DNA of 64,000 bases from an uncultured Gammaproteobacteria bacterium. Its GTDB lineage: Bacteria > Patescibacteriota > Patescibacteriia > Veblenbacterales > UBA10138. Where the stretch lies: NCBI GenBank assembly GCA_964348825.1, contig CAYGDX010000003.1:22184-86183 (forward strand), given 5' to 3'. Under the pieces are notes generated by a model, which ran no database searches, was not told where the DNA came from, and worked only from the letters and a program-made list of their open reading frames with translations. Shown here one piece after another: positions 588 to 61,432 of the stretch (positions within the stretch are counted from its first letter, which is position 1; each line of letters begins with the position of its first letter). The position numbers were made by a program, and so were the translations under genes.

Positions 588-756
588 GTCGTGCCGCCCT
601 GTCGTAGGGTTTGTGCAGAGCGGAAGTCAAACGAGCGTCCGGCTTGGGCGTGTCTGTGGTCGCTTCGCATAGCCCGAACCAGCTCATTTGACGAGCACTG
701 TTCAAACCCGAAGACGAAGGCGGCGACTCTTGCACTACTTCTCTAGAGAAGTAGTA
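588..756 (-). ncRNA. Copy 1 (minus orientation) of a four-copy ~170-nt GC-rich structured repeat. Terminal hairpin ctacttctc-ta-gagaagtag at 735-754.
   Basis: Shares the conserved core gtcttcgggtttgaacagtgctcgtcaaatgagctggttcgggctatgc...gacgctcgtttga...ctctgcacaaaccctacgacagggcggca with the copies at 55758, 58182 and 61263. GC-rich island in AT-rich DNA. ORF 487..735 drawn through it is not conserved as coding. Confidence 0.6.
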
Positions 757-761
757 AAAAA

Positions 762-1274
762 CTAATTACTATCATAAAACATTTGGTAAAAATTGTCTTC
801 CTGCAAACTAGCTAAAAATTCTTCCGGATGCACACTTAATTCTCGTTTTAAATCAACTGGTGAAAACCATTTTACTTCAGCCACTTCTTTGGGCTCAAAT
901 TTTATATCTTTAATATCTGTGTCTAAATTAACAATATAAAATTGTGTAAAATGATTCCATTTGGTTTTAACATGAATTTTAGGTCCAATTTTTAAATCAG
1001 ACAATTTCAAATCCAACCCCAACTCTTCCTTGGTTTCTTTAATTATATTTGATTCATAAGTTTCCCCTTCTTCTACTGTACCAGCCACGGCCGGCCCCCA
1101 CTGCCCCGGATTATGTGATTTATTGTAAGCGCGCCGCGCGAGTAAAAATTCGCCTTTACTATTCGTCAACCACAAAGCCGCTACGCGATAAATAATTTTT
1201 AAATCTTTATCATCGCGCTCTTTTACTCCAATTGGATTATCATTTTCATCTACAATTATAATTTTTGATTTCAT
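762..1274 (-). CDS. NUDIX hydrolase, isopentenyl-diphosphate isomerase-like subgroup
   Basis: Nudix box GTVEEGETYESNIIKETKEELGL. The region RVAALWLTNSKGEFLLARRAYNKSHNPGQWGPAVAG resembles Idi type 1. Confidence 0.7.
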   Translation of the reverse strand: MKSKIIIVDENDNPIGVKERDDKDLKIIYRVAALWLTNSKGEFLLARRAYNKSHNPGQWGPAVAGTVEEGETYESNIIKETKEELGLDLKLSDLKIGPKIHVKTKWNHFTQFYIVNLDTDIKDIKFEPKEVAEVKWFSPVDLKRELSVHPEEFLASLQEDNFYQMFYDSN

Positions 1275-1281
1275 ATTTTTA

Positions 1282-1863
1282 TCACAAACTAATTCCCACT
1301 TGCTTAGCTAAATCTTTCACTAACTCCCAAGGTAGCCCGCGCGCACTATCTTCGCCACCTTCCACTTTTAAATAAAATGGTTTAAGCGATGATTCATCTA
1401 ATTCAAAACCTCCAGCATGACTAAAACATTTGCCTGAGGCAACATAATTATCAATCACTTCGTTTGTTACTGGTCGCCAATACACCTTGGCCACGGCCGA
1501 TCCAACCGCTTGTTCGCCAGAACTTAAATTTGTTACTGCCACGCCATTAATATGCACGGTAGGTTCGTCGCCATAACTTTGTAAAAATCTTTTAGCTTCC
1601 GCTTGGTCAACTGGCTTTTCTCTTAACTCACCTTTATAAAGCACTACTTGATCAGCTGTGATAAGTATAGCTGGTTCGTTGCATTTGATTTTAGATACCA
1701 ACGCATCGGCCTTAGCTTTGGCCAGCGCCATAGTTAATTTTATTGGATCGTCGTCGCGAATAGCTTTTTCATCAATATCAGCTGGCCTAACTTCATAAGT
1801 TAAACCTAATTTATCTAATACTGACTGACGTGATTTAGAAACTGAACCTAAAATAATTTTCAT
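1282..1863 (-). CDS. maf: Maf-like nucleoside triphosphate pyrophosphatase
   Basis: N-terminal ILGS-S-R motif, 193 aa, the typical Maf/YhdE length, with matching conserved layout. Confidence 0.8.
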   Translation of the reverse strand: MKIILGSVSKSRQSVLDKLGLTYEVRPADIDEKAIRDDDPIKLTMALAKAKADALVSKIKCNEPAILITADQVVLYKGELREKPVDQAEAKRFLQSYGDEPTVHINGVAVTNLSSGEQAVGSAVAKVYWRPVTNEVIDNYVASGKCFSHAGGFELDESSLKPFYLKVEGGEDSARGLPWELVKDLAKQVGISL

Positions 1864-1946
1864 AGGATATTAATTTATATTTCAAAATATCGACATTTTT
1901 AAATATCGAAATTTCGATATTTTGATATGTCGAAATATTAAAATTG

Positions 1947-2390
1947 TTATTTGTTTAAAATCTGTTTTAAATATTCATCAAATTCCTGATCTTGATTATT
2001 AACCCGCTTAAACTGTTGGCCTGAAAGCGCACTACCCTTTACTTTATCCACAAAACTCTGAATCAAACGTGACACTTCGTTAGTTAAACCCAAACCTTTA
2101 TTTAATACCGCTTCATTAATAAATCGGCGATCGAATGAAATATAAAGTTGCGCCCTCACTTCACCAGTTTCACCTTTAGCAATAAACAAAGCATCAATGA
2201 ATTCATTTTTAGTGCCCCGGTCAAAACCTTCGGCGATATTAGAAAGTGGTGATATAGCCGCCCGACGAATTTGTCGTTTTAAATCAAAATCTTTAAACTG
2301 AGCTTGGTCGGTAATATCAAAAATAAAATTTGCCAGTTCTCTAGCTCTTTGCCAACAAATCAAATCTTCAAACTTTTGAATTGTCGCCAT
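1947..2390 (-). CDS. Four-helix-bundle protein (23S rRNA intervening-sequence protein family)
   Basis: 147 aa. FEDLICWQRARELANFIF...IAEGFDRGTKNEF is the hallmark of the TIGR02436/PF05635 family. Confidence 0.65.
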   Translation of the reverse strand: MATIQKFEDLICWQRARELANFIFDITDQAQFKDFDLKRQIRRAAISPLSNIAEGFDRGTKNEFIDALFIAKGETGEVRAQLYISFDRRFINEAVLNKGLGLTNEVSRLIQSFVDKVKGSALSGQQFKRVNNQDQEFDEYLKQILNK

Positions 2391-2461
2391 AAAAAATTTC
2401 TTAATATTAATATATTAAAATTTTAAAATGTCGATATCTCGAAATTTCTAAATATTAAACC

Positions 2462-2920
2462 CTACCAACCCAACTCTTTAAGTGCGGCTTCAGCATAAAA
2501 TAAAACATTAGTGCGCAAATCCATCGTGCCCAACTCCTCTTTTGTTGCCCAACGGGCCAAACTTTTCTCGTGATCATTAACTGCACTAGAAATAACATCC
2601 GTACCAGCTTTTGCAAAATATACAAACGTAACGTGTTCATGATTTTCGTTTACCATATTTTTGCCCATATACCTTGGGGCAATGATAGAAAAAAAATTAT
2701 CATCTTTAAATGGGGGTATACTCCCACAAATTTCAATATCTAACCCCACCTCTTCCTTTACTTCACGAATAGCCGCCTCATTCGGATCTTCATCAAGCTC
2801 AATGTGTCCACCAATAGATAACCAATAACCATATTTATCATGCTTACGAAGTAGTATTTTATTTTTATACACAATAAAAACCTCCACCGTAAAATCAATT
2901 TTTTCATGAATGTGTGGCAT
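2462..2920 (-). CDS. NUDIX hydrolase
   Basis: Nudix box GGHIELDEDPNEAAIREVKEEVGLD. Confidence 0.75.
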   Translation of the reverse strand: MPHIHEKIDFTVEVFIVYKNKILLRKHDKYGYWLSIGGHIELDEDPNEAAIREVKEEVGLDIEICGSIPPFKDDNFFSIIAPRYMGKNMVNENHEHVTFVYFAKAGTDVISSAVNDHEKSLARWATKEELGTMDLRTNVLFYAEAALKELGW

Positions 2921-2932
2921 GATAATTACTAA

Positions 2933-3376
2933 TTAACTAATATAAAATTCTTTTTGCAAATAATTTTTTACCATCTTCGCGCTCGGTGGAAAAAGTGGTG
3001 CTGGTAAATTATTTAAATCAAACCACTGCCACTCCACAATTTCATCCGGCTCCATAACTTTTACCTCACCACTAAAATCATCACTAAACATACCTACAGT
3101 AATAAAATGGGCATGTTCATTTTTATCATTGTTTACACACATTACTTTAACCAACTTTAATTCCAAACCCGTTTCCTCCTTTACTTCACGCTTCGCACCT
3201 TCTTCAAACGATTCTCCAAATTCCATTTTACCACCTGGCATAGTCCAACTACCTTCGCCGTGAAGCTCGGAATCGGCTTTAAGTGGATCAGAATGCCGGC
3301 GCCCCAAAAGCACCTTGCCGTCTTTAAAAATCATCACCCCAAACCCGCCTCTAACCTTTTGATTATTGTCTGTCAT
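2933..3376 (-). CDS. NUDIX hydrolase
   Basis: Nudix box PGGKMEFGESFEEGAKREVKEETGLE. Confidence 0.75.
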   Translation of the reverse strand: MTDNNQKVRGGFGVMIFKDGKVLLGRRHSDPLKADSELHGEGSWTMPGGKMEFGESFEEGAKREVKEETGLELKLVKVMCVNNDKNEHAHFITVGMFSDDFSGEVKVMEPDEIVEWQWFDLNNLPAPLFPPSAKMVKNYLQKEFYIS

Positions 3377-3386
3377 ATAAATAAAA

Positions 3387-3803
3387 TTAATTAAGTAAAC
3401 CTCTTTTCAATAAATCGGGAATTATTTTATTTCTAATAATCGGAGAGGTTTTTGGATTAGTTATATAACTTTTATCAATCCAGTGAATATTTTTTACTTC
3501 TGTTGATGCTTTTGGCTCACCAATAATTTTGCCAACATATAATTTAATAGAAACATCTCTATCTGATTTACCAGCCGCAATATCAGTGTATTCATTAACA
3601 TAAACAAGCGAATTTAAATCAACTTCGCAATTTAATTCCTCTTTTATCTCCGCTTTTAACGTCTCAACTTCAGTTGCCTCTTGAAATTGACCGCCGGGCA
3701 TAATGTAATCTGAAGTAACATTACTAGGGTCTTTCTCGCAAACCAGAAACTTGGTTTGATCGTCATTTAAAATTAATAAAGCAATTTTATTATAGTACGC
3801 CAT
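3387..3803 (-). CDS. NUDIX hydrolase (divergent)
   Basis: PGGQFQEATEVETLKAEIKEELNCE Nudix-like box, 138 aa. Confidence 0.6.
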   Translation of the reverse strand: MAYYNKIALLILNDDQTKFLVCEKDPSNVTSDYIMPGGQFQEATEVETLKAEIKEELNCEVDLNSLVYVNEYTDIAAGKSDRDVSIKLYVGKIIGEPKASTEVKNIHWIDKSYITNPKTSPIIRNKIIPDLLKRGLLN

Positions 3804-3816
3804 ACATTAAAATTAA

Positions 3817-4275
3817 TTACTTTTTTAAATACATTTTCACACCTTCTAAAATACCAGAGGTAAAAAACTTTGCGGGCACCACCTTTTCTAATTTAACCCA
3901 CTCATAACCCTTATGCTCACGACTAATCTTAATTTTACCACTTACGTACTTAGCCTCAAAAAATACATACAAAACATGAATCTCTTTTTGCCTACTGCCG
4001 GATTTCTTTGGTAATAAATGCCTCCCCACCGCCACCGGCTTACCCTTCACTATAAATTTTATATTACCTATCTCTTCCCTCACTTCTCTTTCTATAACCT
4101 CCATCAAATCAGTTCTGAATTCATCTGTATCAATTCTACCTCCAGGTAAATCATAAAAACCAGCAAAACTACCACCTTCTACGGCTTTTAGAATCAACAC
4201 TTCGCCGTCTTTATTTTTCAAAAACAACTTTAATGAAATTTGATAAAAATCTTTAGTTTTTTTCATAAGAACCAT
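3817..4275 (-). CDS. NUDIX hydrolase
   Basis: LPGGRIDTDEFRTDLMEVIEREVREEIG Nudix box. Confidence 0.65.
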   Translation of the reverse strand: MVLMKKTKDFYQISLKLFLKNKDGEVLILKAVEGGSFAGFYDLPGGRIDTDEFRTDLMEVIEREVREEIGNIKFIVKGKPVAVGRHLLPKKSGSRQKEIHVLYVFFEAKYVSGKIKISREHKGYEWVKLEKVVPAKFFTSGILEGVKMYLKK

Positions 4276-4278
4276 ACT

Positions 4279-4731
4279 TTAGTTTGATACCACGTATGCG
4301 AGTACGTTAAATTCAGGATCAAAAAATTCTATCATCTCATACTCCGGCCTCACTATAACACGAAGATTGTTTGGACACTTATGTAAATACTCTTTTTTAA
4401 AATTTTCGTAGTTAGTTTCAAAATCATTGCAACCAACTTGTGGACGCTCGGGGTCTGGCTGTCTAATGCGTAAATGCGTGATTTTATTACTTCCAACTAT
4501 AATTGGCACATTCGACTCTGCTCGCGGACCATTATGAAAACTATAGACTTTTCCTATCTCGCCAAGAATTTTAGTTAATAATTCGTACTCTGACTCCGAA
4601 TGTGAAAAAATTGTCAACGACTTAATTGGAAAAGTTTTACCAACTAAATTTTCGGCCAACTTAGATGTTTCAGTGGCAATATAATGTACTGTCTCTAACA
4701 ACCCCTCTTTATTCTGAATTAATTTTTCCAT
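4279..4731 (-). CDS. Hypothetical protein embedded in the NUDIX operon
   Basis: 150-aa ORF with a 4-nt gap to its neighbours. I recognise no family. Confidence 0.4.
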   Translation of the reverse strand: MEKLIQNKEGLLETVHYIATETSKLAENLVGKTFPIKSLTIFSHSESEYELLTKILGEIGKVYSFHNGPRAESNVPIIVGSNKITHLRIRQPDPERPQVGCNDFETNYENFKKEYLHKCPNNLRVIVRPEYEMIEFFDPEFNVLAYVVSN

Positions 4732-4773
4732 TTTTATAAACTACTCAATATTAATCTCTTTATTTATAAAAAA

Positions 4774-5169
4774 TTATTCTATGTCCAACTCCTTAAAACC
4801 AGTAGCGGAGTCAAAAAATCTTTTATACGAGGCGTCATCAAATATTCCAATAACAACCTCTGCTGTAACTTCCACCTTACAACCATCTTTCAAATGACCG
4901 CCGATTACCTTACCATCTTTATCAGAAACAGATATGTGTATATGACAACCATCTTGTGAAATTGTTCCAGTTCCAGAAACAATCTCAAACGCCCCCTCAA
5001 ACTTCTTTACGATTTGATTTTGTGGAGTTGCGCCAGCCATTCTTAAATTAACCTCTTTAAGCGAACCAACAATTGACAATAAAACTCCAGCCTTAATATT
5101 TCTAGATCTATTCTCAATTTCTTCTTTTAAAAATTGATTTGGTTTTAACCGAAATGTTAGTTGCCTCAT
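4774..5169 (-). CDS. PPC/DUF296 domain protein (PD1-like DNA-binding fold)
   Basis: 131 aa. LSIVGSLKEV.LRMAG...FEIVSGTGTIS...HIHISVSDKDGKVIGGHL matches the DUF296 pattern. Confidence 0.5.
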   Translation of the reverse strand: MRQLTFRLKPNQFLKEEIENRSRNIKAGVLLSIVGSLKEVNLRMAGATPQNQIVKKFEGAFEIVSGTGTISQDGCHIHISVSDKDGKVIGGHLKDGCKVEVTAEVVIGIFDDASYKRFFDSATGFKELDIE

Positions 5170-5205
5170 AATATTATTAACTAATGAGATAATTATCTCA
5201 AATTA

Positions 5206-5703
5206 TTATGAATTAAATCTTTGCCACTCAGTTTTTTTACCTTGTCTTTTATTATCAACCATTGCCAATTCATCATAAATACCATCTATCAATTGATAAT
5301 TTTTAGCCTCTTCTAAACTAACCCAAGCAAACTGATCACTTTCTTCAGTTTGTAATATAATTTCACCCGCCACATAATCGGCCATGCACGATATTACCAG
5401 TGACGGACTGCCATCAGCATGAATCGTGGCTAAGCTGGTCACGTATTCAATATTTTCAATCTCAATCCCCACTTCCTCTTTCACCTCACGACGCAGGGTT
5501 TGTTCTAAAACATTGTACCAATAATGCTCTGTATCTTTTGGTAATTGCAAATAATCACTGGTTTCCATTTTACCACCCGGCACTGTCCACATTCCAGGAA
5601 AACGTTTTTTATTTGGTGATCGTCGTGTAATTAAATACTTTCCGTCTTTTACAATAATGGCAGTAATTACTACTTCGTGAAGATATTGATTGGTTGCGTT
5701 CAT
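5206..5703 (-). CDS. NUDIX hydrolase
   Basis: VPGGKMETSDY...LRREVKEEVGIEIE Nudix box. Confidence 0.75.
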   Translation of the reverse strand: MNATNQYLHEVVITAIIVKDGKYLITRRSPNKKRFPGMWTVPGGKMETSDYLQLPKDTEHYWYNVLEQTLRREVKEEVGIEIENIEYVTSLATIHADGSPSLVISCMADYVAGEIILQTEESDQFAWVSLEEAKNYQLIDGIYDELAMVDNKRQGKKTEWQRFNS

Positions 5704-5714
5704 AATTTTTTTAA

Positions 5715-6125
5715 TTACACAAAAAATTCTTTTAGTTCTTTTGTCACTTTAGATAACTCTTCATCAGTGGGATTGGATCGTTTGCCCTCCAAAAGAGATT
5801 TGGAAGTAATGTCATGATAATCGTGCATTGGAACAATGTGAATGTGTGTATGTGGAATATCAAATCCGGCAACTATTAGTCCAACTTTTTTAGGATTCAT
5901 TGCGCGCTCTACAATGCTTGCTAAATTTTTTACCACATTCATGAGGTGACTATATGTATCACTGTCTAAATTGTAAAAATCCGATTCATGTTTTTTGGGA
6001 ATTACGAGCAGATGTCCAGGATTAATCGGATGTTTATCAAGAAAAGCAATAACTTTATCGTCATCATATACAACATGTGCAATAACTTCTTTATTACTAA
6101 TTTTGCAGAAGATACATTCGTTCAT
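5715..6125 (-). CDS. HIT-family (histidine triad) nucleotide hydrolase
   Basis: CIFCKI N-terminus and histidine triad HTHIHIVP. Confidence 0.8.
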   Translation of the reverse strand: MNECIFCKISNKEVIAHVVYDDDKVIAFLDKHPINPGHLLVIPKKHESDFYNLDSDTYSHLMNVVKNLASIVERAMNPKKVGLIVAGFDIPHTHIHIVPMHDYHDITSKSLLEGKRSNPTDEELSKVTKELKEFFV

Positions 6126-11830: not shown

Positions 11831-11908
11831 CATTAGAACATTAGATCATTAGAACAAAAAAACAAAAAATTGATAAAGTGTTCTACTGTTCTAGGGTTCT
11901 AGTGGTGT
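11831..11908. promoter_or_regulatory. Palindromic 9-mer array element (3x cattagaac-like, AT-rich centre, 3x gttcta-like) upstream of speB
   Basis: cattagaacattagatcattagaac-aaaaaaacaaaaaattgataaa-gtgttctactgttctagggttctagtg. Same architecture recurs at 16748, 34252, 36741 and 59566. Confidence 0.6.
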
Positions 11909-14147: not shown

Positions 14148-14279
14148 GGTAAGAGTTGCTCGCCCCGCGTAGCTCTCGCCGTCGCGTAGCCGCTATGGCG
14201 GAGCACGGTTAGCGAAGTGGGGTCATTCCCGCGGCTTGTCCTGCCGTAGTCTTAACGAAGGAGGAAGGCGGGAATCCAG
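14148..14279. repeat. GC-rich ~130-nt element shared with 56021-56106 (reverse complement). Contains a gtcattcccgc...gcgggaatccag hairpin of the GGATTC/GAATGAC family.
   Basis: gtaagagttgctcgccccgcgtagc...gcgaagtggggtcattcccgc..gcgggaatccag matches rc(56021-56106) gtaagaattgctcgccccacgtagc..gcgaagtggggtcattcccgc..gcgggaatccag. Confidence 0.55.
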
Positions 14280-15740: not shown

Positions 15741-16712
15741 CTAGAACCCAATATACCTCACCTCGTCTTGCAACTGTATCCCAAATTGATCCCGCACTTG
15801 TTGTTTAATAAAAGAAATCAGCATCACTACATCCTCGGCTTTAGCTCCACCAACATTTACAATGTAATTAGCATGCTTATCGGAAACTTGCGCTCCGCCA
15901 ATGGTTTTGCCTTTCAGCCCCGCCCGATCAATCAACCAACTGCTTGGTAATTGTCCTTTTTGTATAAACTCCTCAATTTTTTCCTCACCGGCGAATTTAG
16001 TTCGCACTTCATCGGCATTGGTAATTGCTGAATTCATAAAAATACAACCTGAAGATGGCACGTTGTACGGTTGATTACGCCGCGCGTCAATATATTTTTT
16101 CATTAATTCTTTACTCACGCCCGACTCATCTTTTTTTAATTCAAAAACCACTTGTAAAATAACGTCATGATTTCTCTTAAAAATTGATTGGCGATAACCA
16201 AACTCGCATTCAGCTTTACTTAATTTAACCACCTTATCATCACGACACACCACTACTTCTTTTATAAAGTCACCAATAAAACCATTTTTAATTTGTGGAA
16301 TACCAGCATTACCGTAAACTGCACCTCCCACCGTACCCGGTACAGCTACTAGCGGTTCAAGCCCAGTGAGGCCAGCCGCAATAACTTTTTGCACTAAAAA
16401 TCCTAAATTCACACCGGCGTCAGAATTAACTTGCTCACCTTCAACTGACCACTGATTATTACGCGCTTCAATTACCAAACCATCAAAGCCCTTATCCGAT
16501 ACTAAAACATTGGAACCACCACCTAAAATCAAAAACGGTAATTTTAATTCATCAGCCACTTGAATAGCGCGCGTGAGTTCGTTGGTACTGCGCGCCACAA
16601 AAAAATATTTGGCTGGCCCACCAATTTTAAAATTAGTATGAGCTGATAGTGGCTCAGCCATTTTAACCAAGTCGCCGAGGTTTGTTTTAAGTTCAGAGAA
16701 TATGTCAGACAT
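15741..16712 (-). CDS. murB: UDP-N-acetylenolpyruvoylglucosamine reductase MurB
   Basis: FAD-binding N-terminus FKIGGPAKYFFVARSTNEL...LGGGSNVLV, 323 aa. Confidence 0.9.
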   Translation of the reverse strand: MSDIFSELKTNLGDLVKMAEPLSAHTNFKIGGPAKYFFVARSTNELTRAIQVADELKLPFLILGGGSNVLVSDKGFDGLVIEARNNQWSVEGEQVNSDAGVNLGFLVQKVIAAGLTGLEPLVAVPGTVGGAVYGNAGIPQIKNGFIGDFIKEVVVCRDDKVVKLSKAECEFGYRQSIFKRNHDVILQVVFELKKDESGVSKELMKKYIDARRNQPYNVPSSGCIFMNSAITNADEVRTKFAGEEKIEEFIQKGQLPSSWLIDRAGLKGKTIGGAQVSDKHANYIVNVGGAKAEDVVMLISFIKQQVRDQFGIQLQDEVRYIGF

Positions 16713-16747
16713 TGGTTAGTAAGAGTAAGGGGATCAATTATTTATCA

Positions 16748-16846
16748 CTTGAACATTAGATCACTAGAGCATTAGAACAATAGAAAAACTTTGGTGTATA
16801 ATAATGTTCTAATGCTTAAGTGTTCTAGTGATAAAGTGAACGATAA
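16748..16846. promoter_or_regulatory. Palindromic 9-mer array element upstream of murB (cattaga-c repeats, AT-rich centre with tggtgtataat, then gttctaatg.. repeats)
   Basis: cattagatcactagagcattagaac-aatagaaaaactttggtgtataataat-gttctaatgcttaagtgttctagtg. Lies 35 nt upstream of the murB start. Confidence 0.6.
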
Positions 16847-17085
16847 ATCTACTTATTCCAGCTTACCATCCCCCTTAATTCTGGTAAATCCGTTAAATTA
16901 TCTAAAAATCCTTTAAATCTTATATTTTTACCAAAATAAGTCAATTATAAATAATTAATTTATGCTAATATTAGCCAAAATATTATATTTATTGTTCCAC
17001 AATCATTGACAAAATCTACTATCCGCGCTATCATAGAGTGTTAACAATTTAAAACCAATTTTCGTTCCTAATGCTTGGGGCGCGG

Positions 17086-17210
17086 AAAAGGGTGTTTATA
17101 GTGAGTTAGATTAATTTCAAGCATGCCTTTTTAGGCAAAACGGATGCCGCAGTTGAATATACGGATGACGAATGCTGAATCTGACACACTATAAACACCT
17201 TTTTTAAATA
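17086..17210 (+). ncRNA. Candidate small RNA: ~17-bp closing stem enclosing a ~80-nt GC-rich interior, ending in a U-tract
   Basis: aaaagggtgtttatagtg (17086-17103) pairs with cactataaacacctttt (17186-17202), followed by ttttttaaat. The interior is GC-rich and protein-free. No family recognised. Confidence 0.35.
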
Positions 17211-17239
17211 AAAAAATCAATAACATAAACAAAAAAAAT

Positions 17240-17338
17240 ATGGAAAATTTACTTATCGCAATGGCAATCAGCTTGTTTTTTACAGCTGTTGCTCAGCTCG
17301 ACAAATTGAATCGAGAAATAAAATACCGACATTTATAA
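17240..17338 (+). CDS. Possible 32-aa hydrophobic micro-protein
   Basis: ATG..TAA ORF translating as MENLLIAMAISLFFTAVAQLDKLNREIKYRHL. Below the ORF-track length cut-off; no Shine-Dalgarno. Confidence 0.2.
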   Translation: MENLLIAMAISLFFTAVAQLDKLNREIKYRHL

Positions 17339-17702
17339 ATGCACCCCTCATCCCGGCAAACATGACCGGGCGATCAAAAACCAAAAAATAAAACAATGAA
17401 CAGAACCCGAGCCGCTCCCTAACTAAGGGATATAACCCACCAAAACAAAAATAGTACTACGGGGATAAAACCCCTATTAATAGGAACGCTAGTTCCAATC
17501 AATTTGTATGAACTTAGTATAGTAGAGATAAGAAAAAATCTGATTTATCAGAACTTCCCTCAAAATAATAAATTCATACACTACAAGATTAATGGTCAAG
17601 GGGGAGCCGACAACAACAGTGAACGACCCCCTTCTCTCCCCAGCCGATGATAAAAATCGTCGTTTGAGAAGAGGAAATAAAAATGTCATTCCAAAAATAG
17701 TT

Positions 17703-17780
17703 GTCATTCCCGCGCAGGCGGGAATCCATAAAAACTAAACTACAAATTTCTGGATCCCGGATTCTTGTCCGGGATGACAA
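17703..17780. repeat. Two tandem GGATTC..stem..GAATGAC-family hairpins (gtcattcccgcgcaggcgggaatcc and ggatcccggattcttgtccgggatgaca)
   Basis: Perfect short hairpins flanked by the ggattc / gaatgac motif. Related copies at 14222, 18725, 19063, 19099 and 56021. Confidence 0.55.
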
Positions 17781-18031
17781 TAAACTGTCACTTTAACAAA
17801 CATTTATCTTTACCAACCTGGGAGGAGTAAAACGAATCTAACGAAACATTTTACAACGCGGGGCAGATTTGGGTCGCGACTGGTGTAAACTGGTTTCTAC
17901 CTATTATCTGTACGCTTGGTAGGATGGCTTTCGAGCCAAAATCCTACCCGCCAGGTTAGTAAAGATAAATAATATTTATAAACAAATAACGCCCGCTACC
18001 GAGGATTTATATCGGAGAGGATAAAAACAAA

Positions 18032-18547
18032 ATGAATAAAATTTTTTCATTCGCAGGTAATATAATAATGGCTGTCATCGCGGCAATTATTATTTCATTG
18101 TCTTATGATTTAGAAACTGACCTGACCATAATAAACGCTTGCATAGCCTTATTTGCTATAGCAAAAATTAATATGGCATTCTACTTCACACAAGGTCATG
18201 GTGTTGGATTAAAACACTCATCAAAAAATTTCTTAAGAATGCCGGTTATTCTAATTGTCTTCTTTGTAATAGCATTAGGTCTTTCCACTGCGCTATTTGC
18301 GACTGCCTTATTATCAAATAATGAGCTTTCGACAACAACTATGAATAACATAGCAGCAATTGGGTTAACAATGCTATTAACCATAGTGCTTGCAATGTTA
18401 CGATGGTATTTATCTGCCTACCGAGAAATGTATCTTGGGAGTGAATATGAAGCTCGGCTGGAGTTCAAAGGAAAAAATTATACCATTGAGCAGGCTGATC
18501 TAAAAATTCAACAACTGAGGGACCATGGCGTTCTTCCAATAAAATAA
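18032..18547 (+). CDS. Membrane protein, about 4 TM helices, unknown function
   Basis: 171-aa ORF with GGAGAGG Shine-Dalgarno 11 nt upstream. Lies inside the island interrupting the dcw cluster. Confidence 0.5.
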   Translation: MNKIFSFAGNIIMAVIAAIIISLSYDLETDLTIINACIALFAIAKINMAFYFTQGHGVGLKHSSKNFLRMPVILIVFFVIALGLSTALFATALLSNNELSTTTMNNIAAIGLTMLLTIVLAMLRWYLSAYREMYLGSEYEARLEFKGKNYTIEQADLKIQQLRDHGVLPIK

Positions 18548-18670
18548 TATTTAATCATTGATTTATTCAAAACTAAAAGGTATTAATATGAAACGTAGGT
18601 GACAAATAAAGCGGGTCGTCGACCACCTCGGCAAACAGAAGTCGACCGCAACTAAAGGCGAATTTTAGAT

Positions 18671-18707
18671 AAGGACAGAACAAGATTTATCTGTCCTTAA
18701 TTTTTTT
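18671..18707 (+). terminator. Rho-independent terminator
   Basis: aaggacag-aacaagatttat-ctgtcctt followed by aattttttt. Confidence 0.55.
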
Positions 18708-18787
18708 AAGATTATAATTATTTCTGGATTCTTGCCTGTGCAGGAATGACAAACGTGTTATAACTTAAAAAAGTTAAACTAACTACC

Positions 18788-18823
18788 GTCTCTACAAATG
18801 TCCGGGCGGACATTTGTAGAGAC
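18788..18823. repeat. 17-bp perfect hairpin gtctctacaaatgtccg-ggc-ggacatttgtagagac (tgtccNNNcggaca family)
   Basis: Perfect inverted repeat. ORF 18798..18998 as drawn starts inside it, so the true start is more likely 18849. Confidence 0.5.
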
Positions 18824-18848
18824 GCACAAAAAAAAGAAAGAAAAAATA

Positions 18849-18998
18849 ATGGAAAAGAAAAATAAAAAAAGATTCATCGCTATAATATTGACGGTGATAT
18901 TAGTATTTACCGCCAATTTAATTATTGGCACGTTTGATTGTCACGGACCACGTGATGGTCGAGTAATTGAATCACCAACTGACTCACCTAAACCATAA
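18849..18998 (+). CDS. Small secreted/membrane protein (49 aa, one TM helix)
   Basis: MEKKNKKRFIAIILTVILVFTANLIIGTF..., followed by a strong terminator. Confidence 0.35.
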   Translation: MEKKNKKRFIAIILTVILVFTANLIIGTFDCHGPRDGRVIESPTDSPKP

Positions 18999-19054
18999 AA
19001 GCCGACTTTGTATGCAACATATAATATGCAACACCAAGTCGGCTTATTTTTTTA
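18999..19054 (+). terminator. Rho-independent terminator
   Basis: aagccgac...gtcggctt stem followed by T7. Confidence 0.6.
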
Positions 19055-19062
19055 TCTATTTC

Positions 19063-19124
19063 TGGATTCCCCTTTTCAGGGGAATGACATATTGCCAAGA
19101 TTCTTCACTGTGATTCAGAATGAC
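19063..19124. repeat. Two GGATTC..GAATGAC-family hairpins (ggattcccc-tttt-caggggaatgaca; gattcttcactgtgattcagaatgac)
   Basis: Same flanking motif as 17703, 18725 and 56021. Confidence 0.45.
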
Positions 19125-19190
19125 GTTTTGGGATTTGGTCCGCCAGCTGGCGGATTGGAGATTTTTAGAAATTAGAAATTAGATATTAGT

Positions 19191-19241
19191 AATTTTGAGA
19201 GATTGCCATGTCGTTCGCCTTACTCACTCCTCGCAATGACG
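19191..19241. repeat. Gene-3'-end repeat, copy B, immediately after the murC stop
   Basis: aattttgagagattgccatgtcgttcgccttactcactcctcgcaatgacg, preceded by ttagaaattagaaattagatattagt, as in copy C. Confidence 0.55.
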
Positions 19242-19246
19242 AAATG

Positions 19247-20650
19247 TTATACCTCTTCAACTTTTCCAATTTGTGTAATCATCTTCTCCCCCACTTGCCA
19301 CACATCGCCCGCGCCCATAGTGACGACTAAATCACTTCGGCCGGCAGTAGAAATTAAATATTCTAAAGCATTGTCAATTTTTCCTTGATACTCCACATTC
19401 TTGTGGTGCTTTTTTATTTCAACAACAACATCCTCACTAGAAATTCCACCTTGCTCTTCGCGCGCTGAACCATAAATATCCATTATCACCACTTCATCGG
19501 CATCGGCAAAGGCTATAGCAAAATCAGGTAACAATGCTTTAGTACGCGTAAAAGTGTGGGGTTGAAAAACACACCGAATTTTTTTATATGGATAGAATGC
19601 CTTGAGAGCTTTAAGCGAGGCCTTAATTTCTGACGGATGATGTGCGTAATCATCTATCACATAAACACCATTATTTAATTTAGCTTTTTTTTCTAAACGC
19701 CGCGCCGTGCCTTCAAAGCTAGCCAGTGCTTGGCGAATAATTTCTATATCTACCCCGAGTTTTGTGGCGCAAGCGAGCGCCGCCATAGCATTGGCCACAT
19801 TATGCGAACCAATTAAACGCAACCAAAAATCACCTACAAATTCCTCGCCATGGGCCACTGAAAAATGCCATTTACCTTCATCGAGCCAAGTACGTACCAA
19901 ACTCCACTCGCCCTCGCGCAAGCCATAACTAATAATTTGTTCGGGCTGTAATCCCGCCTCAGCCACAACTTTTTTTACTATTGGTGAATCAAAACACGGA
20001 ACGATAAATCCATCTGATGGTATTTTTTTTAAAAAATTAACAAAAGCGGCTTCGTAATCATTTGGGGTAGGGAAAAAATCTGGATGATCCCAGTCAACAC
20101 TGGTTAAAATTATGCCACGGGGCGAAAAATATTGAAATTTATTTTGATACTCATCGGCCTCATACACAAAAATGTCACCGGAGCCAATAAGCGCATTACC
20201 ACCAAATTGTGGGACGACTGAGCCAACAATGGCACGAGGATTTAGATTGGCGTGTTTTAAAATATGTGCGAGCATAGCCGAAATAGTAGTTTTGCCATGC
20301 GAACCTGCTACAGCTACACCTGTGTAACCCGCAGTTAATTCGCCTAATGCTTCAGGATAAGTAAAAATCGGAATTTTTTTTGATTCGGCTGTTTGTACTT
20401 CAATATTATTTTCACCATAGGCGGTAGAACGAATTACTAAATCAATCTGACCATTTATGTGCTCAGCTGAAAAATTGTCATAAATTTTAAGGCCTAATTT
20501 TTTAAGCACTGGAGTAGTAACAAAATCTTCCGCTACATCACTCCCCCACACTTCTTTGTTTTGAGCGAGTAAATGCTGAGCGAGAGCAGTCATGCCAACG
20601 CCCTTGACCCCTATTAAATAAATTCGGTTAGAGTTGTTTAAGATTGACAT
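19247..20650 (-). CDS. murC: UDP-N-acetylmuramate--L-alanine ligase MurC
   Basis: IYLIGVKGVGMTALAQHL...GSD N-terminus and Mur ligase central/C-terminal domains; 467 aa. Confidence 0.9.
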   Translation of the reverse strand: MSILNNSNRIYLIGVKGVGMTALAQHLLAQNKEVWGSDVAEDFVTTPVLKKLGLKIYDNFSAEHINGQIDLVIRSTAYGENNIEVQTAESKKIPIFTYPEALGELTAGYTGVAVAGSHGKTTISAMLAHILKHANLNPRAIVGSVVPQFGGNALIGSGDIFVYEADEYQNKFQYFSPRGIILTSVDWDHPDFFPTPNDYEAAFVNFLKKIPSDGFIVPCFDSPIVKKVVAEAGLQPEQIISYGLREGEWSLVRTWLDEGKWHFSVAHGEEFVGDFWLRLIGSHNVANAMAALACATKLGVDIEIIRQALASFEGTARRLEKKAKLNNGVYVIDDYAHHPSEIKASLKALKAFYPYKKIRCVFQPHTFTRTKALLPDFAIAFADADEVVIMDIYGSAREEQGGISSEDVVVEIKKHHKNVEYQGKIDNALEYLISTAGRSDLVVTMGAGDVWQVGEKMITQIGKVEEV

Positions 20651-20789
20651 AATATGATTTAAAATAATTTGTAGAAAATCCGAAATCCTAAACCCTAAAT
20701 CCCAAATAAATCATAAAATTTAAAATCCTAATATATAAACCTTTTTGATTTCAAGTATTGGGATTTATTTAGGATTTAGATATTAGGAA

Positions 20790-21938
20790 TTAGAATTTTT
20801 GAGAGATTACTTCGTCATTCCGCTTCACTTCATTCCTCACAATGACGTCCTTTAATAATCGTAAAACCTCACTAACCACCCTCTCCGCTCCATCTTTCGG
20901 AAACAATTTAGTCAAATTTTCCGCGTACTTTTCCCGGCGATCTGTATCGTTCCAAAGCTCGTTTACAGTAGCAACCAATTGCTCACTCGTCAATCCTAAC
21001 TGATGTACATATACCCCAGCTTGTTTCTTGGCTATTAACTCCGCATTGGCTTCTTGATGTTTACTAGGCAAAGGTATCACGATAATTGATTTACCAAGTA
21101 CACCAAGCTCTGTTAAAAAGGCCATACCCGCTCGTGTAATCACTACATCAGCCACTTGAAGTGCTTTAAAAATAGTTTCTGCTTGAGCTACAAATTCAAG
21201 TGGAAGATAGTGCGAATGTTTAAAAGTATTTTTTAAATTACCTTGTCCCGTAATATGAAGTACTTGAAAATTCTTAACTAGCTCTGGTACAGCTTGCTCG
21301 ACTATGCGATTAAGAGAAACAGCGCCCGTGCCTCCACCAATTACCACTAGAATTGGCAAATGTACATTCAAACCTAATTCATTTTTTAATGTATCGGCCG
21401 GCCGAAGATTTAAAAATTCCGAACGCACTGGATTGCCCACTACCCTACAAACGTTATTTGGAAAATCTTTAATTGATTCCGGAAATGTTACCGTAACTAA
21501 ATTCGCCACTCGCCCTAATATTTTATTAGTTAAAACTACTTTAACATCTTGTTGGTGTACCACTAGTGGTACGCTCATTACCTTAGCAACTAAACCAACC
21601 GGTAGTGCCACGAAACTGCCAGCGGTGAGCACGATATCAACCTGATTTCTTGTAAACCAAATTAAACATTTAATAAAACTAAAAAGGATGAGTACTAAAT
21701 CGGTAATATTTTTTATACTAAAGTAACGTCGCCACTTAGCTGCTGGTAGTTGAATATATTTTTCTACTACATTTTGTACCACCTCTTTTTCTGGACCATG
21801 AGTCGTACCAAACCAAACCACGCGTACCTTACACGCCGGCAATTGTTTTTTTAATTCCGCAAGTACTGAAAGTAGGGGCGTAACCGAACCAAGCGTACCA
21901 CCGCCCGCACAAACAATGGTTAATTCTTTTCGTTCCAT
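20790..21938 (-). CDS. murG: MurG, UDP-GlcNAc:undecaprenyl-PP-MurNAc-pentapeptide GlcNAc transferase. The C-terminal ~17 aa are probably read through a repeat.
   Basis: GT28 fold with glycine-rich N-terminus IVCAGGGTLGSVTPLL, 382 aa; sits between ftsW and murC. Confidence 0.85.
   Translation of the reverse strand: MERKELTIVCAGGGTLGSVTPLLSVLAELKKQLPACKVRVVWFGTTHGPEKEVVQNVVEKYIQLPAAKWRRYFSIKNITDLVLILFSFIKCLIWFTRNQVDIVLTAGSFVALPVGLVAKVMSVPLVVHQQDVKVVLTNKILGRVANLVTVTFPESIKDFPNNVCRVVGNPVRSEFLNLRPADTLKNELGLNVHLPILVVIGGGTGAVSLNRIVEQAVPELVKNFQVLHITGQGNLKNTFKHSHYLPLEFVAQAETIFKALQVADVVITRAGMAFLTELGVLGKSIIVIPLPSKHQEANAELIAKKQAGVYVHQLGLTSEQLVATVNELWNDTDRREKYAENLTKLFPKDGAERVVSEVLRLLKDVIVRNEVKRNDEVISQKF
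20793..20847. repeat. Gene-3'-end repeat, copy C, overlapping the annotated 3' end of murG
   Basis: gaatttttgagagattacttcgtcattccgcttcacttcattcctcacaatgacg. The last 17 codons of the murG ORF (..IVRNEVKRNDEVISQKF) are translated from this repeat. Confidence 0.55.
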
Positions 21939-23044
21939 TTTATATGTCGAGAAATATTAACAACTATACCACAAGCGGCCAGCGCAGTAAGTAAGGCGCT
22001 ACCACCAGCCGAAACAAATGGTAATGGCACGCCCGTCAGTGGCATAATATTTATCATAGAAGCTACATTTATACAAATTTGCCACCCAAACCACACCATA
22101 ATACCGGAAGCGAGATATGTACCAAAAGCATCAGGCGCGCGTAAGGCAATCCTTAGCCCGCGAAATAAAAAAGTAAAAATTATTAACAAAAATACCACAC
22201 TTAAAATAAACCCTAATTCCTCAGCCATAATTGCAAAAATTGAATCGCCGGTAACTTCAGGTAGATATTGATATTTTTGACGCGAGTAGCCAAGTCCTAA
22301 ACCAAATAAACCGCCTGATCCAACGGCGAGCAGTGCTTGATTAATATGATAACCAATACCTTGCGGATCAAGCTCAGGATTTAAAAACACTGTTAAACGT
22401 TTCACGCTGTGTGGAAAAATTTTAATAATCGACCAAAGTGCAGTGATTCCACCCGCAGCCAATACCCCCAAATGCGAAAACTTGGCACCGGCCACCAAAT
22501 AAATTGCAATCGCCGCCACACCAACTACTGAAGTTGTACCTAAATCTGGTTGTAAAACAATTAAACTTAAAGTAACTACTAAAATTATAACAAAAGGCAA
22601 AAAACCTTTAACCAAACTTTTCACATTTTCACCCGCCGCTTCAAACCAAGCCGCCAAATAAATTACCAAGGTTAATTTAATTAATTCGCTGGGTTGAAAT
22701 ACGAATGGCCCAAGTGCTAACCAGCGCCGTGCTCCACCCAAATTCAACCCCAAGCCTGGTACAAAAATAAGCCCCAGCAAAATTAAAGAAATAATAAAAA
22801 ACCAAAGTGCAAATTTTTTTAATTTATGATAATCAAACCGACTAAAAAAAATAAATAAAAGCAACCCTGGTAAAAGACCAGCCAGTACTTGATGTTTTAA
22901 GTAATAATAAGTATCGCCAAATCTTTGAAAACCAACTGATACTGAAGCTGAAGTAAGAAATACTAAACCAATTATCACTATCAAACTTAAGGTGGTGATA
23001 AAAAAATAATCTGGCTTGCCACTTGAAGTAGTAAATTTTTCCAT
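21920..23044 (-). CDS. ftsW: SEDS-family peptidoglycan polymerase FtsW/RodA
   Basis: 10-TM protein; its position between murD and murG follows dcw order. Confidence 0.85.
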   Translation of the reverse strand: MEKFTTSSGKPDYFFITTLSLIVIIGLVFLTSASVSVGFQRFGDTYYYLKHQVLAGLLPGLLLFIFFSRFDYHKLKKFALWFFIISLILLGLIFVPGLGLNLGGARRWLALGPFVFQPSELIKLTLVIYLAAWFEAAGENVKSLVKGFLPFVIILVVTLSLIVLQPDLGTTSVVGVAAIAIYLVAGAKFSHLGVLAAGGITALWSIIKIFPHSVKRLTVFLNPELDPQGIGYHINQALLAVGSGGLFGLGLGYSRQKYQYLPEVTGDSIFAIMAEELGFILSVVFLLIIFTFLFRGLRIALRAPDAFGTYLASGIMVWFGWQICINVASMINIMPLTGVPLPFVSAGGSALLTALAACGIVVNISRHIKWNEKN

Positions 23045-25920: not shown

Positions 25921-26157
25921 AACAATGGTATTTTAGCGGAAAAAAACATATCCGACAAGTAGCTATACTTATCGCTAAAATATCCAAGGATAAAAGTATT
26001 TGAATATAGAAATATGAATTGTTTTAATAACTAATCTCTAATATCTAATTTCTAAAAAACCAAAAATCCTAATAACCAACTTAAAAAATAGGAATTAGTC
26101 ATTAGACATTAACAATTACCCTCTACCCTATTTTTCCGTCATCTGATATATTTAATT

Positions 26158-34211: not shown

Positions 34212-34251
34212 AAGTTTAGTAAGAGTAAGAGATTTAAGTTAAGAGTCTTTG

Positions 34252-34350
34252 TCATTAGAACATTAGATCACTAGAGCATAAAAACAAAAATGTCATTTAT
34301 TATAATGTTTTAATGTTTAAGTGTTCTAGTGTTTTATATTAGCGTTCTAA
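34252..34350. promoter_or_regulatory. Palindromic 9-mer array element upstream of rplI
   Basis: cattagaacattagatcactagagcat-aaaaacaaaaatgtcatttattataat-gttttaatgtttaagtgttctagtg. The centre carries a TATAAT. Confidence 0.6.
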
Positions 34351-55757: not shown

Positions 55758-55946
55758 TTTGTTACTTCTTTAATAGAAGTAACCATGAATCGCAGGCCAC
55801 GGTCTCCAAGTTTGAACAGTGCTCGTCAAACGAGCTGGTCAGGCCTATGCACAGCGACCACAAACACGGCCTGACCGGACGCTCGTTTGATTCCCTGCCT
55901 ACCGGCAGGCAGGCGCTCTGTACAAACTTTCCGACATGGCCGCACA
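55758..55946 (+). ncRNA. Copy 2 of the four-copy GC-rich structured repeat. Terminal hairpin gttacttc-tttaata-gaagtaac at 55760-55782.
   Basis: Core ...gtctccaagtttgaacagtgctcgtcaaacgagctggtcaggcctatgc..ggcctgaccggacgctcgtttgattccctgcctaccggcaggcaggcgctctgtacaaactttccgacatggccgcac. The last ~70 nt are identical to copy 3. Confidence 0.6.
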
Positions 55947-56020
55947 ACTTTTGGGAATTGGGATTTTTAAAAATTAGTTATTAGTTGTTAGTGATTTTCC
56001 CCGCCACAGCGGGGCAAGCT

Positions 56021-56106
56021 GGATTCCCGCCGGAGTTTACCCCGCACCAAGATGCGGGGCGGGAATGACCCCACTTCGCCAAGGCTACGTGGGGCGAGCA
56101 ATTCTT
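56021..56106. repeat. GC-rich element homologous (reverse complement) to 14148-14279; contains a ggattcccgcc...ggcgggaatgac hairpin
   Basis: See the 14148 feature. Confidence 0.55.
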
Positions 56107-58181: not shown

Positions 58182-58368
58182 TTGTTACTTCTTTAATAGA
58201 AGTAACCAAGAATCGCGGCCTTCGTCTCCAAGTTTGAACAGTGCTCGTCAAACAATCTGGTCAGGCCTATGCCGAGCGACCACATACACGCCCAAGCCGG
58301 ACGCTCGTTTGATTCCCTGCCTACCGGCAGGCAGGCGCTCTGTACAAACTTTCCGACATGGCCGCACG
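58182..58368 (+). ncRNA. Copy 3 of the four-copy GC-rich structured repeat. Terminal hairpin at 58184-58206.
   Basis: ttgttacttctttaatagaagtaacca..gtctccaagtttgaacagtgctcgtcaaacaatctggtcaggcctatgc...ggcgctctgtacaaactttccgacatggccgcac. Confidence 0.6.
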
Positions 58369-58423
58369 ACTTTCTATGATTTATTTTTCTAATTTCGAAT
58401 TTAGTGCTTCGGATTTGGAATTT

Positions 58424-59565: not shown

Positions 59566-59650
59566 CATTAAAACACTAGAACATTAAAACATTAGAACAT
59601 TATTAATAAAAATCTTGTTTCTATGATCTAGCGATCTAATGTTCTAATGT
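59566..59650. promoter_or_regulatory. Palindromic 9-mer array element beginning 3 nt upstream of the metK start codon
   Basis: cattaaaacactagaacattaaaacattagaacat-tattaataaaaatcttgtttctatg-atctagcgatctaatgttctaatg. Confidence 0.55.
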
Positions 59651-61180: not shown

Positions 61181-61262
61181 AGAGTAAATATATTATCTAA
61201 CAAAACCATGAGTCGGTATAGAAAATTTAAAACAAAAATTTTAAATATCAAAATATTATTTT

Positions 61263-61432
61263 TACCACTTCTCTAGAGAAGTGGTGCAAGAGTCGCCGCC
61301 TCGGTCTCCGGGCTTGAACAGTGCTCGCCAAACGAGCTGGTCAGGCCTATGCCAAGCGACCACAACACGGCCTGACCTTAAGCTCGTTTGCCTTGCGCTC
61401 TGTACAAACCCTACGACAGGGCGGCATTCGTT
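61263..61432 (+). ncRNA. Copy 4 of the four-copy GC-rich structured repeat. Terminal hairpin ccacttctc-ta-gagaagtgg at 61265-61284; lacks the cctgcctaccggcagg sub-hairpin.
   Basis: ccacttctctagagaagtggtgcaagagtcgccgcctcggtctccgggcttgaacagtgctcgccaaacgagctggtcaggcctatgccaagcgaccacaacacggcctgacc..gctcgtttgccttgcgctctgtacaaaccctacgacagggcggca. Same subfamily as copy 1. Confidence 0.6.

Follow-up and report, generated by a model that had tools for sequence, protein, structure and literature searches.

We analysed a 64,000-nt stretch of DNA, hereafter called the window (positions 22,184 to 86,183 of contig CAYGDX010000003.1, assembly GCA_964348825.1), from an uncultured bacterium of the Patescibacteria lineage Veblenbacterales. 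Patescibacteria, or candidate phyla radiation (CPR) bacteria, have tiny genomes, are uncultured and are probably host-dependent. The window lies on a metagenome contig (ENA ERZ27247837, k141_1088634). Our subject is the spacer that separates the genes murC and murB within the division and cell wall (dcw) cluster of this genome. We found that the spacer carries two structured RNA elements, A (17038-17210) and B (17798-17970), behind a conserved promoter. Each element is present in a single copy, keeps its position, structure and strand among relatives and is absent from Rfam. A and B are very probably functional RNAs of the plus strand, and the arrangement of the gap favours, with moderate confidence, a transcription unit on the strand opposite murB.

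An initial annotation, made from the sequence of the window alone, had described the spacer as a repeat-rich, low-coding island that splits the dcw cluster, and had suggested an insertion or a hotspot for small RNAs and selfish repeats. The block is neither a recent insertion nor mere non-coding filler. The observation was essentially correct and its interpretation half right.

The gap between murC and murB

Matches to Pfam placed mraY, murD, ftsW, murG and murC on the minus strand, from 25521 to 19247, with murC at 19247-20650. The murB gene lies on the same strand at 15741-16712, and prs, hpf and an arginine/ornithine decarboxylase gene are found beyond it. The genes and their strand agree with the initial annotation; its wording that the run from mraY to murC is without gaps is approximate, murG and murC being 139 nt apart. 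The window shares with canonical dcw clusters the order mraY-murD-ftsW-murG-murC-murB on one strand. It differs from them in the 2534-nt spacer between the last two genes, where in this clade an apparently oppositely transcribed unit cuts murB off from murC, so that murB must use a promoter region of its own (16713-17005).

About 87% of the 64-kb window is coding, and the median gap between open reading frames (ORFs) is 84 nt. The two largest gaps between ORFs of at least 90 aa, 16713-18031 (1319 nt) and 18548-19246 (699 nt), both lie inside the block, which really is exceptional for the window and, as had been noted at the outset, unusual for a compact genome. The accompanying statement that 16713-18031 holds no ORF of 60 aa or more was incorrect, as two minus-strand ORFs of 72 and 63 aa are present. 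The term non-coding was also too strong: part of the block encodes very small membrane peptides.

For comparison, 38 genome loci were fetched via MurC, and further loci of the close clade were added via MurB homologues and exact-protein look-ups. Those closest by MurC and MurB bear the names Candidatus Veblenbacteria or Kerfeldbacteria. The clade is sharply bounded, with MurB identities of 57-94% inside and at most 48% outside, and a metagenome search with MurB returned only distant relatives (at most 38% identity). A gap is present at the same position in 16 of the 17 clade loci that hold both murC and murB, measuring 1.1-2.4 kb in 15 loci and 0.47 kb in L004; in an additional locus, L008, the contig ends inside a gap of at least 1.4 kb. 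In the remaining clade member, L082 (positions 559-2960; MurB 66% identical), murC and murB are 14 nt apart, and neither A nor B was found within 8 kb. Among distant Patescibacteria with both genes, 9 of 16 loci have them adjacent or overlapping (less than about 50 nt), and the others have gaps of 0.15-0.85 kb. Read on the plus strand, the unit consists of a control region, the promoter, A, an optional small transmembrane (TM) ORF, B, one to three genes for small membrane proteins or lipoproteins, and terminators facing the murC end.

Control region and promoter

A sigma-70 promoter, TTGACA-17 nt-TATCAT, is located at 17006..17034 on the plus strand. It agrees with the consensus at 11 of 12 positions and is directed away from murB. 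Its spacing falls within the 16-18 nt typical of sigma-70 promoters and is conserved: every one of the 15 clade loci read has a perfect TTGACA box, a 17-nt spacer and TATnnT. The conservation of this consensus promoter implies strong transcription away from murB. In L005 and L056, from which A is absent, the same promoter leads straight into B. In L054 the TTGACA box is apparently missing from its expected site.

The control region between the divergent genes (16964..17002) is conserved in the alignments with relatives. It contains a perfect palindrome, GCTAATATTAGC, at 16964-16975 and the motif TGTTCCACAA at 16993-17002, just 5' of the -35 box. Both are conserved in the clade and are candidate binding sites of a regulator. 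The control segment is 87% identical in L054, with which the flanking intergenic DNA cannot be aligned. The reverse complement of the CCACAACC core also occurs upstream of B in L003 and L060.

Element A

Element A (17038..17210, plus strand) is a structured RNA of about 165 nt, supported by a covariance model (R2), by its folding energy and by pair counts. Up to the end of its closing helix it spans 17038-17204, with U6 following. At the 5' side a hairpin, P1 (17063-17082), carries the loop UAAUGCUU. The long closing helix P2 is formed by 27-nt arms at 17086-17112 and 17178-17204, with 23 pairs in the consensus, and is directly followed by the U6 tract. Hairpin P4 (17147-17164) has the loop CAGUUGAAUAUA in the window and the conserved loop AGUUGAAUAA in the clade. 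The P1 loop (AUGCUUG, 17071-17077) forms a pseudoknot with CAAGCAU (17118-17124), the first nucleotides enclosed by P2. At the homologous place this pairing takes three forms: most loci have GUGCUUG/CAAGCAC, the window has AUGCUUG/CAAGCAU, and L008 and L009 have AGAAGAG/CUCUUCU. Because shuffle statistics for single sequences are weak, chance matches of 7-mers being easy to obtain, the argument for the pseudoknot rests on these three co-varying versions.

The segment 17040-17215 folds with z = -5.4. R2 scored 87.8 bits on the plus strand of the window and 28.7 bits on the minus strand. Fourteen clade loci were matched once each, the match in every case lying on the strand opposite murB (44-149 bits; at most 48 bits on the other strand). 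Matches outside the model-building set were obtained in L063 (80 bits), L081 (69.5) and L009 (45). Distant relatives, the rest of the 64-kb window, about 45 further loci and viral contigs gave no match. Pairing was kept in 90.3% of alignment cells, compared with 38-48% in slid controls, and 12 of 31 pairs showed compensatory changes. Several positions alternate between A-U and G-U, indicating that A is an RNA of the plus strand. The initial annotation had proposed a candidate small RNA at 17086-17210, and the strong fold, the conservation in relatives and the covariation confirm it as a structured RNA.

The 3' end of A has the anatomy of an intrinsic terminator, although termination itself is a prediction: the 23-bp consensus helix has GGGUG/CACC at its base, and U5-U6 follows it directly in all 13 sequences read. 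A simple terminator scan does not list this helix because its loop is longer than 8 nt. Given this anatomy, A should accumulate as an RNA of about 165 nt. We also considered a type I toxin-antitoxin pair formed by A and the 32-aa peptide described below. A and the peptide ORF share a strand, with A on the upstream side and no overlap between them, and neither an antisense promoter nor complementarity was found.

Element B

Element B (17798..17970, plus strand) is a structured RNA of about 170 nt with a multi-helix junction, supported by a second model (R1), by its folding energy and by pair counts; its length is 155-200 nt across loci. The long closing helix P1 has 20-nt arms in the window (17802-17821 and 17951-17970) and 25-30 bp in relatives, with a conserved CCUGGGAGGAG on its 5' side. 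In its inner part a conserved purine tract (CUGGGAGGGGAGA), which resembles a Shine-Dalgarno (SD) sequence, is paired with a CCUCC-like tract of the UCUCCUCC type. An extra hairpin follows P1 in the window; it is variable and present in some loci. Hairpin P3 has the core ACUGGU-GUAA-ACUGGU (17879-17894), for which the invariant form in the clade is YUGGU-loop-ACURR. Hairpin P4 (17918-17948) reads GGUAGGAU-GGCU-UUCG-AGCC-AAAA-UCCUACC and conforms to the general form of the clade, in which an outer stem encloses GCC-UUCG-GGC and an AAA bulge.

The segment 17795-17980 folds with z = -7.7. R1, built from five relatives with the window left out, scored 50.4 bits (E = 6e-10) on the plus strand of the window and 29.6 bits on the minus strand. 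It found nine further loci outside its model set (32-101 bits) and matched 15 clade loci in total, once each, with position and orientation unchanged. Beyond these sites R1 matched nothing, whether in the remainder of the 64-kb window, in about 45 further loci or among viral contigs. Pairing was kept in 90.1% of cells, compared with 35-46% in slid controls; compensatory changes affected 30 of 39 pairs, and none of 500 shuffles reached any of the observed measures. Separate minimum-energy folds of 11 sequences all gave the same architecture, so this result is independent of the model-fitted alignment. The structured leader that the initial annotation had placed at 17812-17960 is thereby confirmed as strongly structured, conserved in relatives and supported by covariation. 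One C-A / G-U position in the closing helix of the window had raised the suspicion that B belongs to the minus strand, which the model scores and the G-U counts ruled out.

In L058 and L009, 15-20 nt separate the U-tract of A from the start of B, and in the 11 loci compared no sigma-70-type promoter was seen consistently upstream of B. This combination suggests that B and the genes behind it are reached by read-through. A ribosome binding site (RBS) and the start codon of an ORF for a TM protein or lipoprotein come 10-61 nt behind B in 13 of 14 loci; in the window the start codon lies 61 nt after B.

A and B as undescribed motifs

In both elements base pairing, kept through compensatory changes, exceeds that of the controls, and the strand is defined. 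Model scores in relatives reach 151 bits as against 33 bits on the opposite strand, and the plus strand has many G-U pairs. Both occur once per locus and always at the same position, which is not how a miniature inverted-repeat transposable element or another dispersed repeat is distributed.

The initial annotation had proposed an Rfam/Infernal search of the block, and this matched no family. With Rfam 15 there were no matches at gathering score in the window or in the loci of 18 relatives. When E values up to 10 were admitted over 17030-17980, only generic hairpins (microRNA precursors) and a partial FtrB match on a repeat hairpin appeared, and the models for 6S RNA and the signal recognition particle (SRP) RNA gave no match even then. 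A U5 match is likewise a generic hairpin. A suspected likeness to ZTP, SRP, T-box and glycine RNAs was not borne out by Rfam. A literature search returned no report on non-coding RNAs of this lineage. Given the lack of an Rfam match and the silence of the literature on the lineage, we treat A and B as undescribed motifs.

Origin of the block

The same position, promoter and RNAs in 16 of 17 clade loci indicate that the block is ancestral to the clade and under selection. By this comparison the unit appears to have been acquired in an ancestor of the Veblenbacteria-like Patescibacteria lineage and kept since, and is neither recent nor private to this genome.

That the block is a mobile island or a recent insertion of selfish DNA between murC and murB is quite improbable. 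Such an event would fit the adjacency of the two genes in distant Patescibacteria and in the clade member L082, and also the gap content, which differs strongly even between the window and L054, whose MurB is 94% identical. The enrichment of repetitive extragenic palindromic (REP)-like hairpins in the block points the same way, as do the dispersed 165-nt foldback copies that relatives carry in or next to the gap and the two assemblies that break inside it. However, loci with MurB only 57-73% identical have the same promoter, A and B with position and orientation unchanged, and the 64 kb of this genome contain A and B once each. ORF list, ARAGORN and Pfam revealed neither a transposase or integrase gene nor a tRNA in the block or beside it, and no tRNA or tmRNA was predicted by ARAGORN. 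The GC content of the block (0.34-0.38) is similar to that of its neighbourhood, and viral contigs gave no matches. A viral origin had been considered after strings conserved in A and B picked out 17 viral contigs; R1 and R2 matched none of these, and we attribute the hits to chance.

The comparison with related dcw clusters, which the initial annotation had named as the check on its insertion, thus gives a divided answer. An insertion stands in a deep sense, as murC and murB are mostly adjacent in distant Patescibacteria, and fails as a recent or private event, as 16 of 17 clade loci have the genes apart and share the block.

The closest relative (H52 samples; MurB and MurC 94% identical) is represented by two contigs that break at or beside the gap: L054 starts 477 nt upstream of murB, and L007 ends inside murC. 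These breaks are probably due to repeats. The gaps of L008 and L009 share conserved non-coding sequence next to murB (70% identity over 572 nt), with tblastx matches in all frames.

Possible roles of A and B

The most likely reading of our model is that A is an attenuator or small RNA and that B, behind it, is a control element of a 5' untranslated region. The near-consensus sigma-70 promoter, flanked by the conserved palindrome, would fire away from murB. The closing helix of A and its U-tract would act as an intrinsic terminator, so that A is released as a stable small RNA about 165 nt long. The downstream genes would be reached by read-through alone, which may be conditional, and A would thereby be an attenuator, either leaky and constitutive or conditional. 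The read-through RNA would carry B ahead of the RBS of a gene for a small membrane protein or lipoprotein, in the window that of the protein with four TM segments (4-TM protein). The CCUCC-like strand of B would either stay locked to the decoy SD sequence in P1 or pair with the real one, and B would in this way set translation or stability of the downstream mRNA. The rest of the block would be fast-evolving, made up of lineage-specific small envelope genes, terminators, REP-like hairpins and the murB promoter cassette. We consider this model of a conserved transcription unit reasonably probable.

Terminator-type 5' leaders that also yield a small RNA reportedly include SreA and SreB, which derive from Listeria S-adenosylmethionine riboswitches. 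A resembles such leaders in following a strong promoter, in its conserved pseudoknotted fold, in its 3' end of hairpin and U-tract and in that downstream genes need read-through. It differs from them in that the terminator helix encloses the conserved core rather than competing with it. Moreover, no alternative antiterminator pairing was found for A, and it has no known ligand, heterogeneous downstream genes and no Rfam match. B can be compared with riboswitches that sequester the SD sequence and with STAB-SD of Bacillus thuringiensis cryIIIA, said to be an mRNA stabiliser acting through an SD-like sequence. B lies 10-61 nt upstream of the RBS and has a GGAGG-type tract, far from the start codon, that is paired to a CCUCC-type tract. 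In contrast to these systems, the paired tract is not the gene's own SD sequence, the element is a junction of 155-200 nt with conserved P3 and P4, and in L081 no ORF follows it.

More speculatively, A and B could represent two new classes of regulatory RNA confined to one CPR lineage and placed in tandem, with a switch of the terminator type in front and one acting on translation or stability behind it. Metabolites, ions, envelope stress or proteins are among the cellular signals to which each might respond, so as to control fast-evolving small envelope proteins within the cell-wall cluster; we put this forward as a tentative proposal. That at least one of the two elements is a true signal-sensing switch seems doubtful to us.

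Several points weigh against the attenuator and leader reading. Transcription of the unit, termination at A, read-through and a regulatory role of A and B are all deduced from sequence. The pair counts of both elements were taken from model-fitted alignments, which favours structure, and from 10-11 sequences that are phylogenetically related. In L004, A lacks the 5' hairpin P1 and the pseudoknot. The genes after A and B always encode small TM proteins or lipoproteins but fall into several families with no relation to each other, whereas classical riboswitches have coherent gene sets. The whole unit is missing from L082, so it is dispensable or has been lost in that locus. In L081 a terminator-like hairpin, and no ORF of at least 25 aa, comes after B, which indicates that B can exist as a free-standing RNA.

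The last point leads to a different account, in which A, perhaps together with B, stands free as a small RNA with a trans-acting or housekeeping role (protein-binding or 6S-like), sharing only the promoter region with the small-protein genes and exerting no regulation in cis. We judge this unlikely, though clearly less so than a recent insertion. A consensus promoter of its own, a terminator-like 3' end that is conserved and loops (AGUUGAAUAA, GUGCUUG) kept across a deep clade would all suit A as a free-standing RNA, as would the arrangement in L081 and the heterogeneity of the downstream genes. As in 6S RNA, a promoter-driven small RNA with a long closing helix would enclose an internal unpaired region. 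A differs from 6S RNA in that the loop of an upstream hairpin pairs into this region and the enclosed part is only about 120 nt long, and neither the 6S nor the SRP models of Rfam recognise it. Against a free-standing RNA, the short distance between A and B in L058 and L009, with no consistent promoter between them, requires some read-through, and an RBS and start codon closely follow B in all but one of the 14 loci. The complement of the A P4 loop, finally, is not enriched in the window (29 occurrences, 29 expected).

If A and B are regulators, they would offer an entry point to envelope control in CPR bacteria, with two orphan motifs that are directly testable. Two covariation-supported folds without an Rfam family stand in one conserved unit inside a cell-wall synthesis cluster. 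For the annotation of metagenome-assembled genomes, the block illustrates that seemingly empty DNA in a streamlined genome can mix conserved RNA genes, unannotated micro-proteins and palindromic repeat families.

Encoded proteins

Three small proteins are predicted on the plus strand of the block. An ORF for a hydrophobic 32-aa peptide (MENLLIAMAISLFFTAVAQLDKLNREIKYRHL) lies at 17240..17338; it is in the ORF list and is an annotated gene in the contig, and it has no clear SD sequence. Small TM ORFs are found at the same position after A in L004, L060 and L063, a relation that is positional, with no sequence homology shown. At 18032..18547 lies the gene of the 4-TM protein (171 aa), for which the initial annotation was confirmed in both its four hydrophobic segments and its RBS, GGAGAGGA at 18014-18021. 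This protein belongs to no Pfam, NCBIfam or PADLOC family and had one homologue (74% identity) among 5.8 billion proteins. The third gene (18849..18998) encodes a 49-aa peptide with a single TM segment (MEKKNKKRFIAIILTVILVF...). Its ORF, noted initially, is real, and we place the ATG at 18849. L056 (54% over 26 aa, E = 2e-6), L055 and L063 have weak relatives of this peptide in the corresponding place near murC. In place of the 4-TM protein, relatives carry a 3-TM family and two lipoprotein families after A and B. Neither the window's peptides nor the relatives' lipoproteins matched Pfam, NCBIfam or PADLOC. The leaders of the 32-aa and 49-aa ORFs (17218-17247 and 18827-18856) are alike: both are A-rich and SD-less, end in ATGGAAAA and are 73% identical over 30 nt.

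On the minus strand, the ORFs of 72 aa (17489-17707) and 63 aa (17589-17780) span repeat hairpins and have no relatives. Together with a 37-codon frame across B in L003, read by eye, they are what could be cited for a missed or decayed protein-coding gene hidden in the block, with the RNA structures as by-products. This is extremely improbable. The two ORFs cross REP-like hairpins and are not conserved, and tblastx between gaps was coding-like only for the small ORFs of L008 and L009. Tblastn of all gap proteins of the relatives against the block revealed no remnant, and the substitutions in A and B keep base pairs, not reading frames.

Terminators and repeats

Where the initial annotation had counted three terminators, we found four terminator-like hairpins with U-tracts on the plus strand. 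In addition to the end of A, these are an intrinsic terminator after the 4-TM gene (18670..18706; 10-bp stem, then U7), another after the 49-aa peptide gene (18999..19052; hairpin, then U7; z = -6.5) and a terminator-like hairpin at 19134-19165 within the murC-proximal repeat cluster. The 17-bp perfect hairpin reported initially was recovered as a perfect palindrome with 18-nt arms at 18787..18824 (plus strand), 25 nt upstream of the 49-aa ORF, which folds into a 17-bp stem (-28.7 kcal/mol, z = -9.8).

The block is further marked by REP-like hairpins with the consensus UGGAUUC-stem-loop-stem-GAAUGAC. The exact pattern GGATTC..GAATGAC occurs three times, with none expected. Two copies lie in inverted orientation at 17703..17778 (17703-17727, minus strand; 17754-17778, plus strand), and a third, recognised by pattern and fold, at 18726..18750 (plus strand). 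A repeat cluster at the murC stop codon (19064..19241, plus strand) comprises a REP-like hairpin (19064-19088), a degenerate copy (19097-19124), the terminator-like hairpin at 19134-19165, an AT-rich module and a weak ..GCAATGAC hairpin (19196-19240, plus strand). The initial annotation listed five GGATTC..GAATGAC hairpins; only four of the repeat hairpins fold well, with stems of 8-9 bp; one or two copies are degenerate, that at 19097-19124 not folding and that at 19196-19240 being weak. Elsewhere in the window, copies are present at 14222-14275 (minus strand) and 56023-56069 (plus strand), in the form TGGATTCCCGC...GCGGGAATGAC with long variable loops. An exact 27-nt copy occurs twice in the distant Patescibacteria locus L026 (2645-2748), indicating that this hairpin family has spread far beyond the clade. 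The partial FtrB match (28.9 bits; threshold 66) covers only the REP-like hairpin.

These hairpins behave as REP sequences or bacterial interspersed mosaic elements do: they are short, palindromic, intergenic and multi-copy (6-7 in or near the block), with conserved flanks and covarying stems, and often follow terminators. They differ from such elements in that no REP-associated tyrosine transposase (IS200/IS605-like) was seen in the 64-kb window, though none was specifically searched for, and in their presence in distant bacteria, both in L026 and inside the Francisella FtrB model.

The AT-rich module (19154-19241, plus strand) contains repeats of TAGAAATTAG. It recurs at 20757-20847, in the murG-murC spacer upstream of murC, at 26026-26058 and 55957-55998, and in L007 at 4441-4641. 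A string similar to this module precedes murB in L054.

A fourth repeat family, a dispersed GC-rich foldback of about 165 nt, has four intergenic copies in the window, none of them in the block: 588-759 (minus strand), 55796-55948, 58207-58370 and 61260-61426 (all plus strand). In relatives it occurs at L054:236-425, just upstream of murB, at L081:4016-4200, inside the murC-murB gap, and at L055:2919-2969. The foldback is rod-like, and 20 of its 54 pairs change in a compensatory manner from copy to copy; its apical loop, UAUGC.AAGCGACCACA.ACACG, is conserved. It had no Rfam match and may be a repeat of the enterobacterial repetitive intergenic consensus (ERIC) or Correia type, or a multi-copy RNA.

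The repeats decorate the conserved core rather than make up the block, for which repeat-rich is a correct description. The idea of a hotspot for small RNAs and selfish repeats was also largely right, with two conserved RNAs, 4-6 REP-like copies and a promoter cassette that is itself repeated.

The murB cassette and further observations

This cassette occupies the 5' region of murB (16716..16846, minus strand) and was not in the inventory of the initial annotation. It contains an inverted repeat of 109 nt (16738-16846; 45-nt arms, 78% complementary), built of TAGAAC/GTTCTA units of about 16 nt around an AT-rich centre. Paralogous copies lie directly upstream of rplI (34216-34331), metK (59574-59650) and an arginase-family gene (11831-11904). 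In L054, whose MurB is 94% identical, the cassette upstream of murB is absent and other sequence takes its place. The inverted repeat may be a promoter/operator-like cassette and perhaps a movable module shared between genes.

Away from the block, eleven consecutive ORFs of 131-193 aa with very short spacers lie on the minus strand at 762-6125 and may form a tandem paralogous family.

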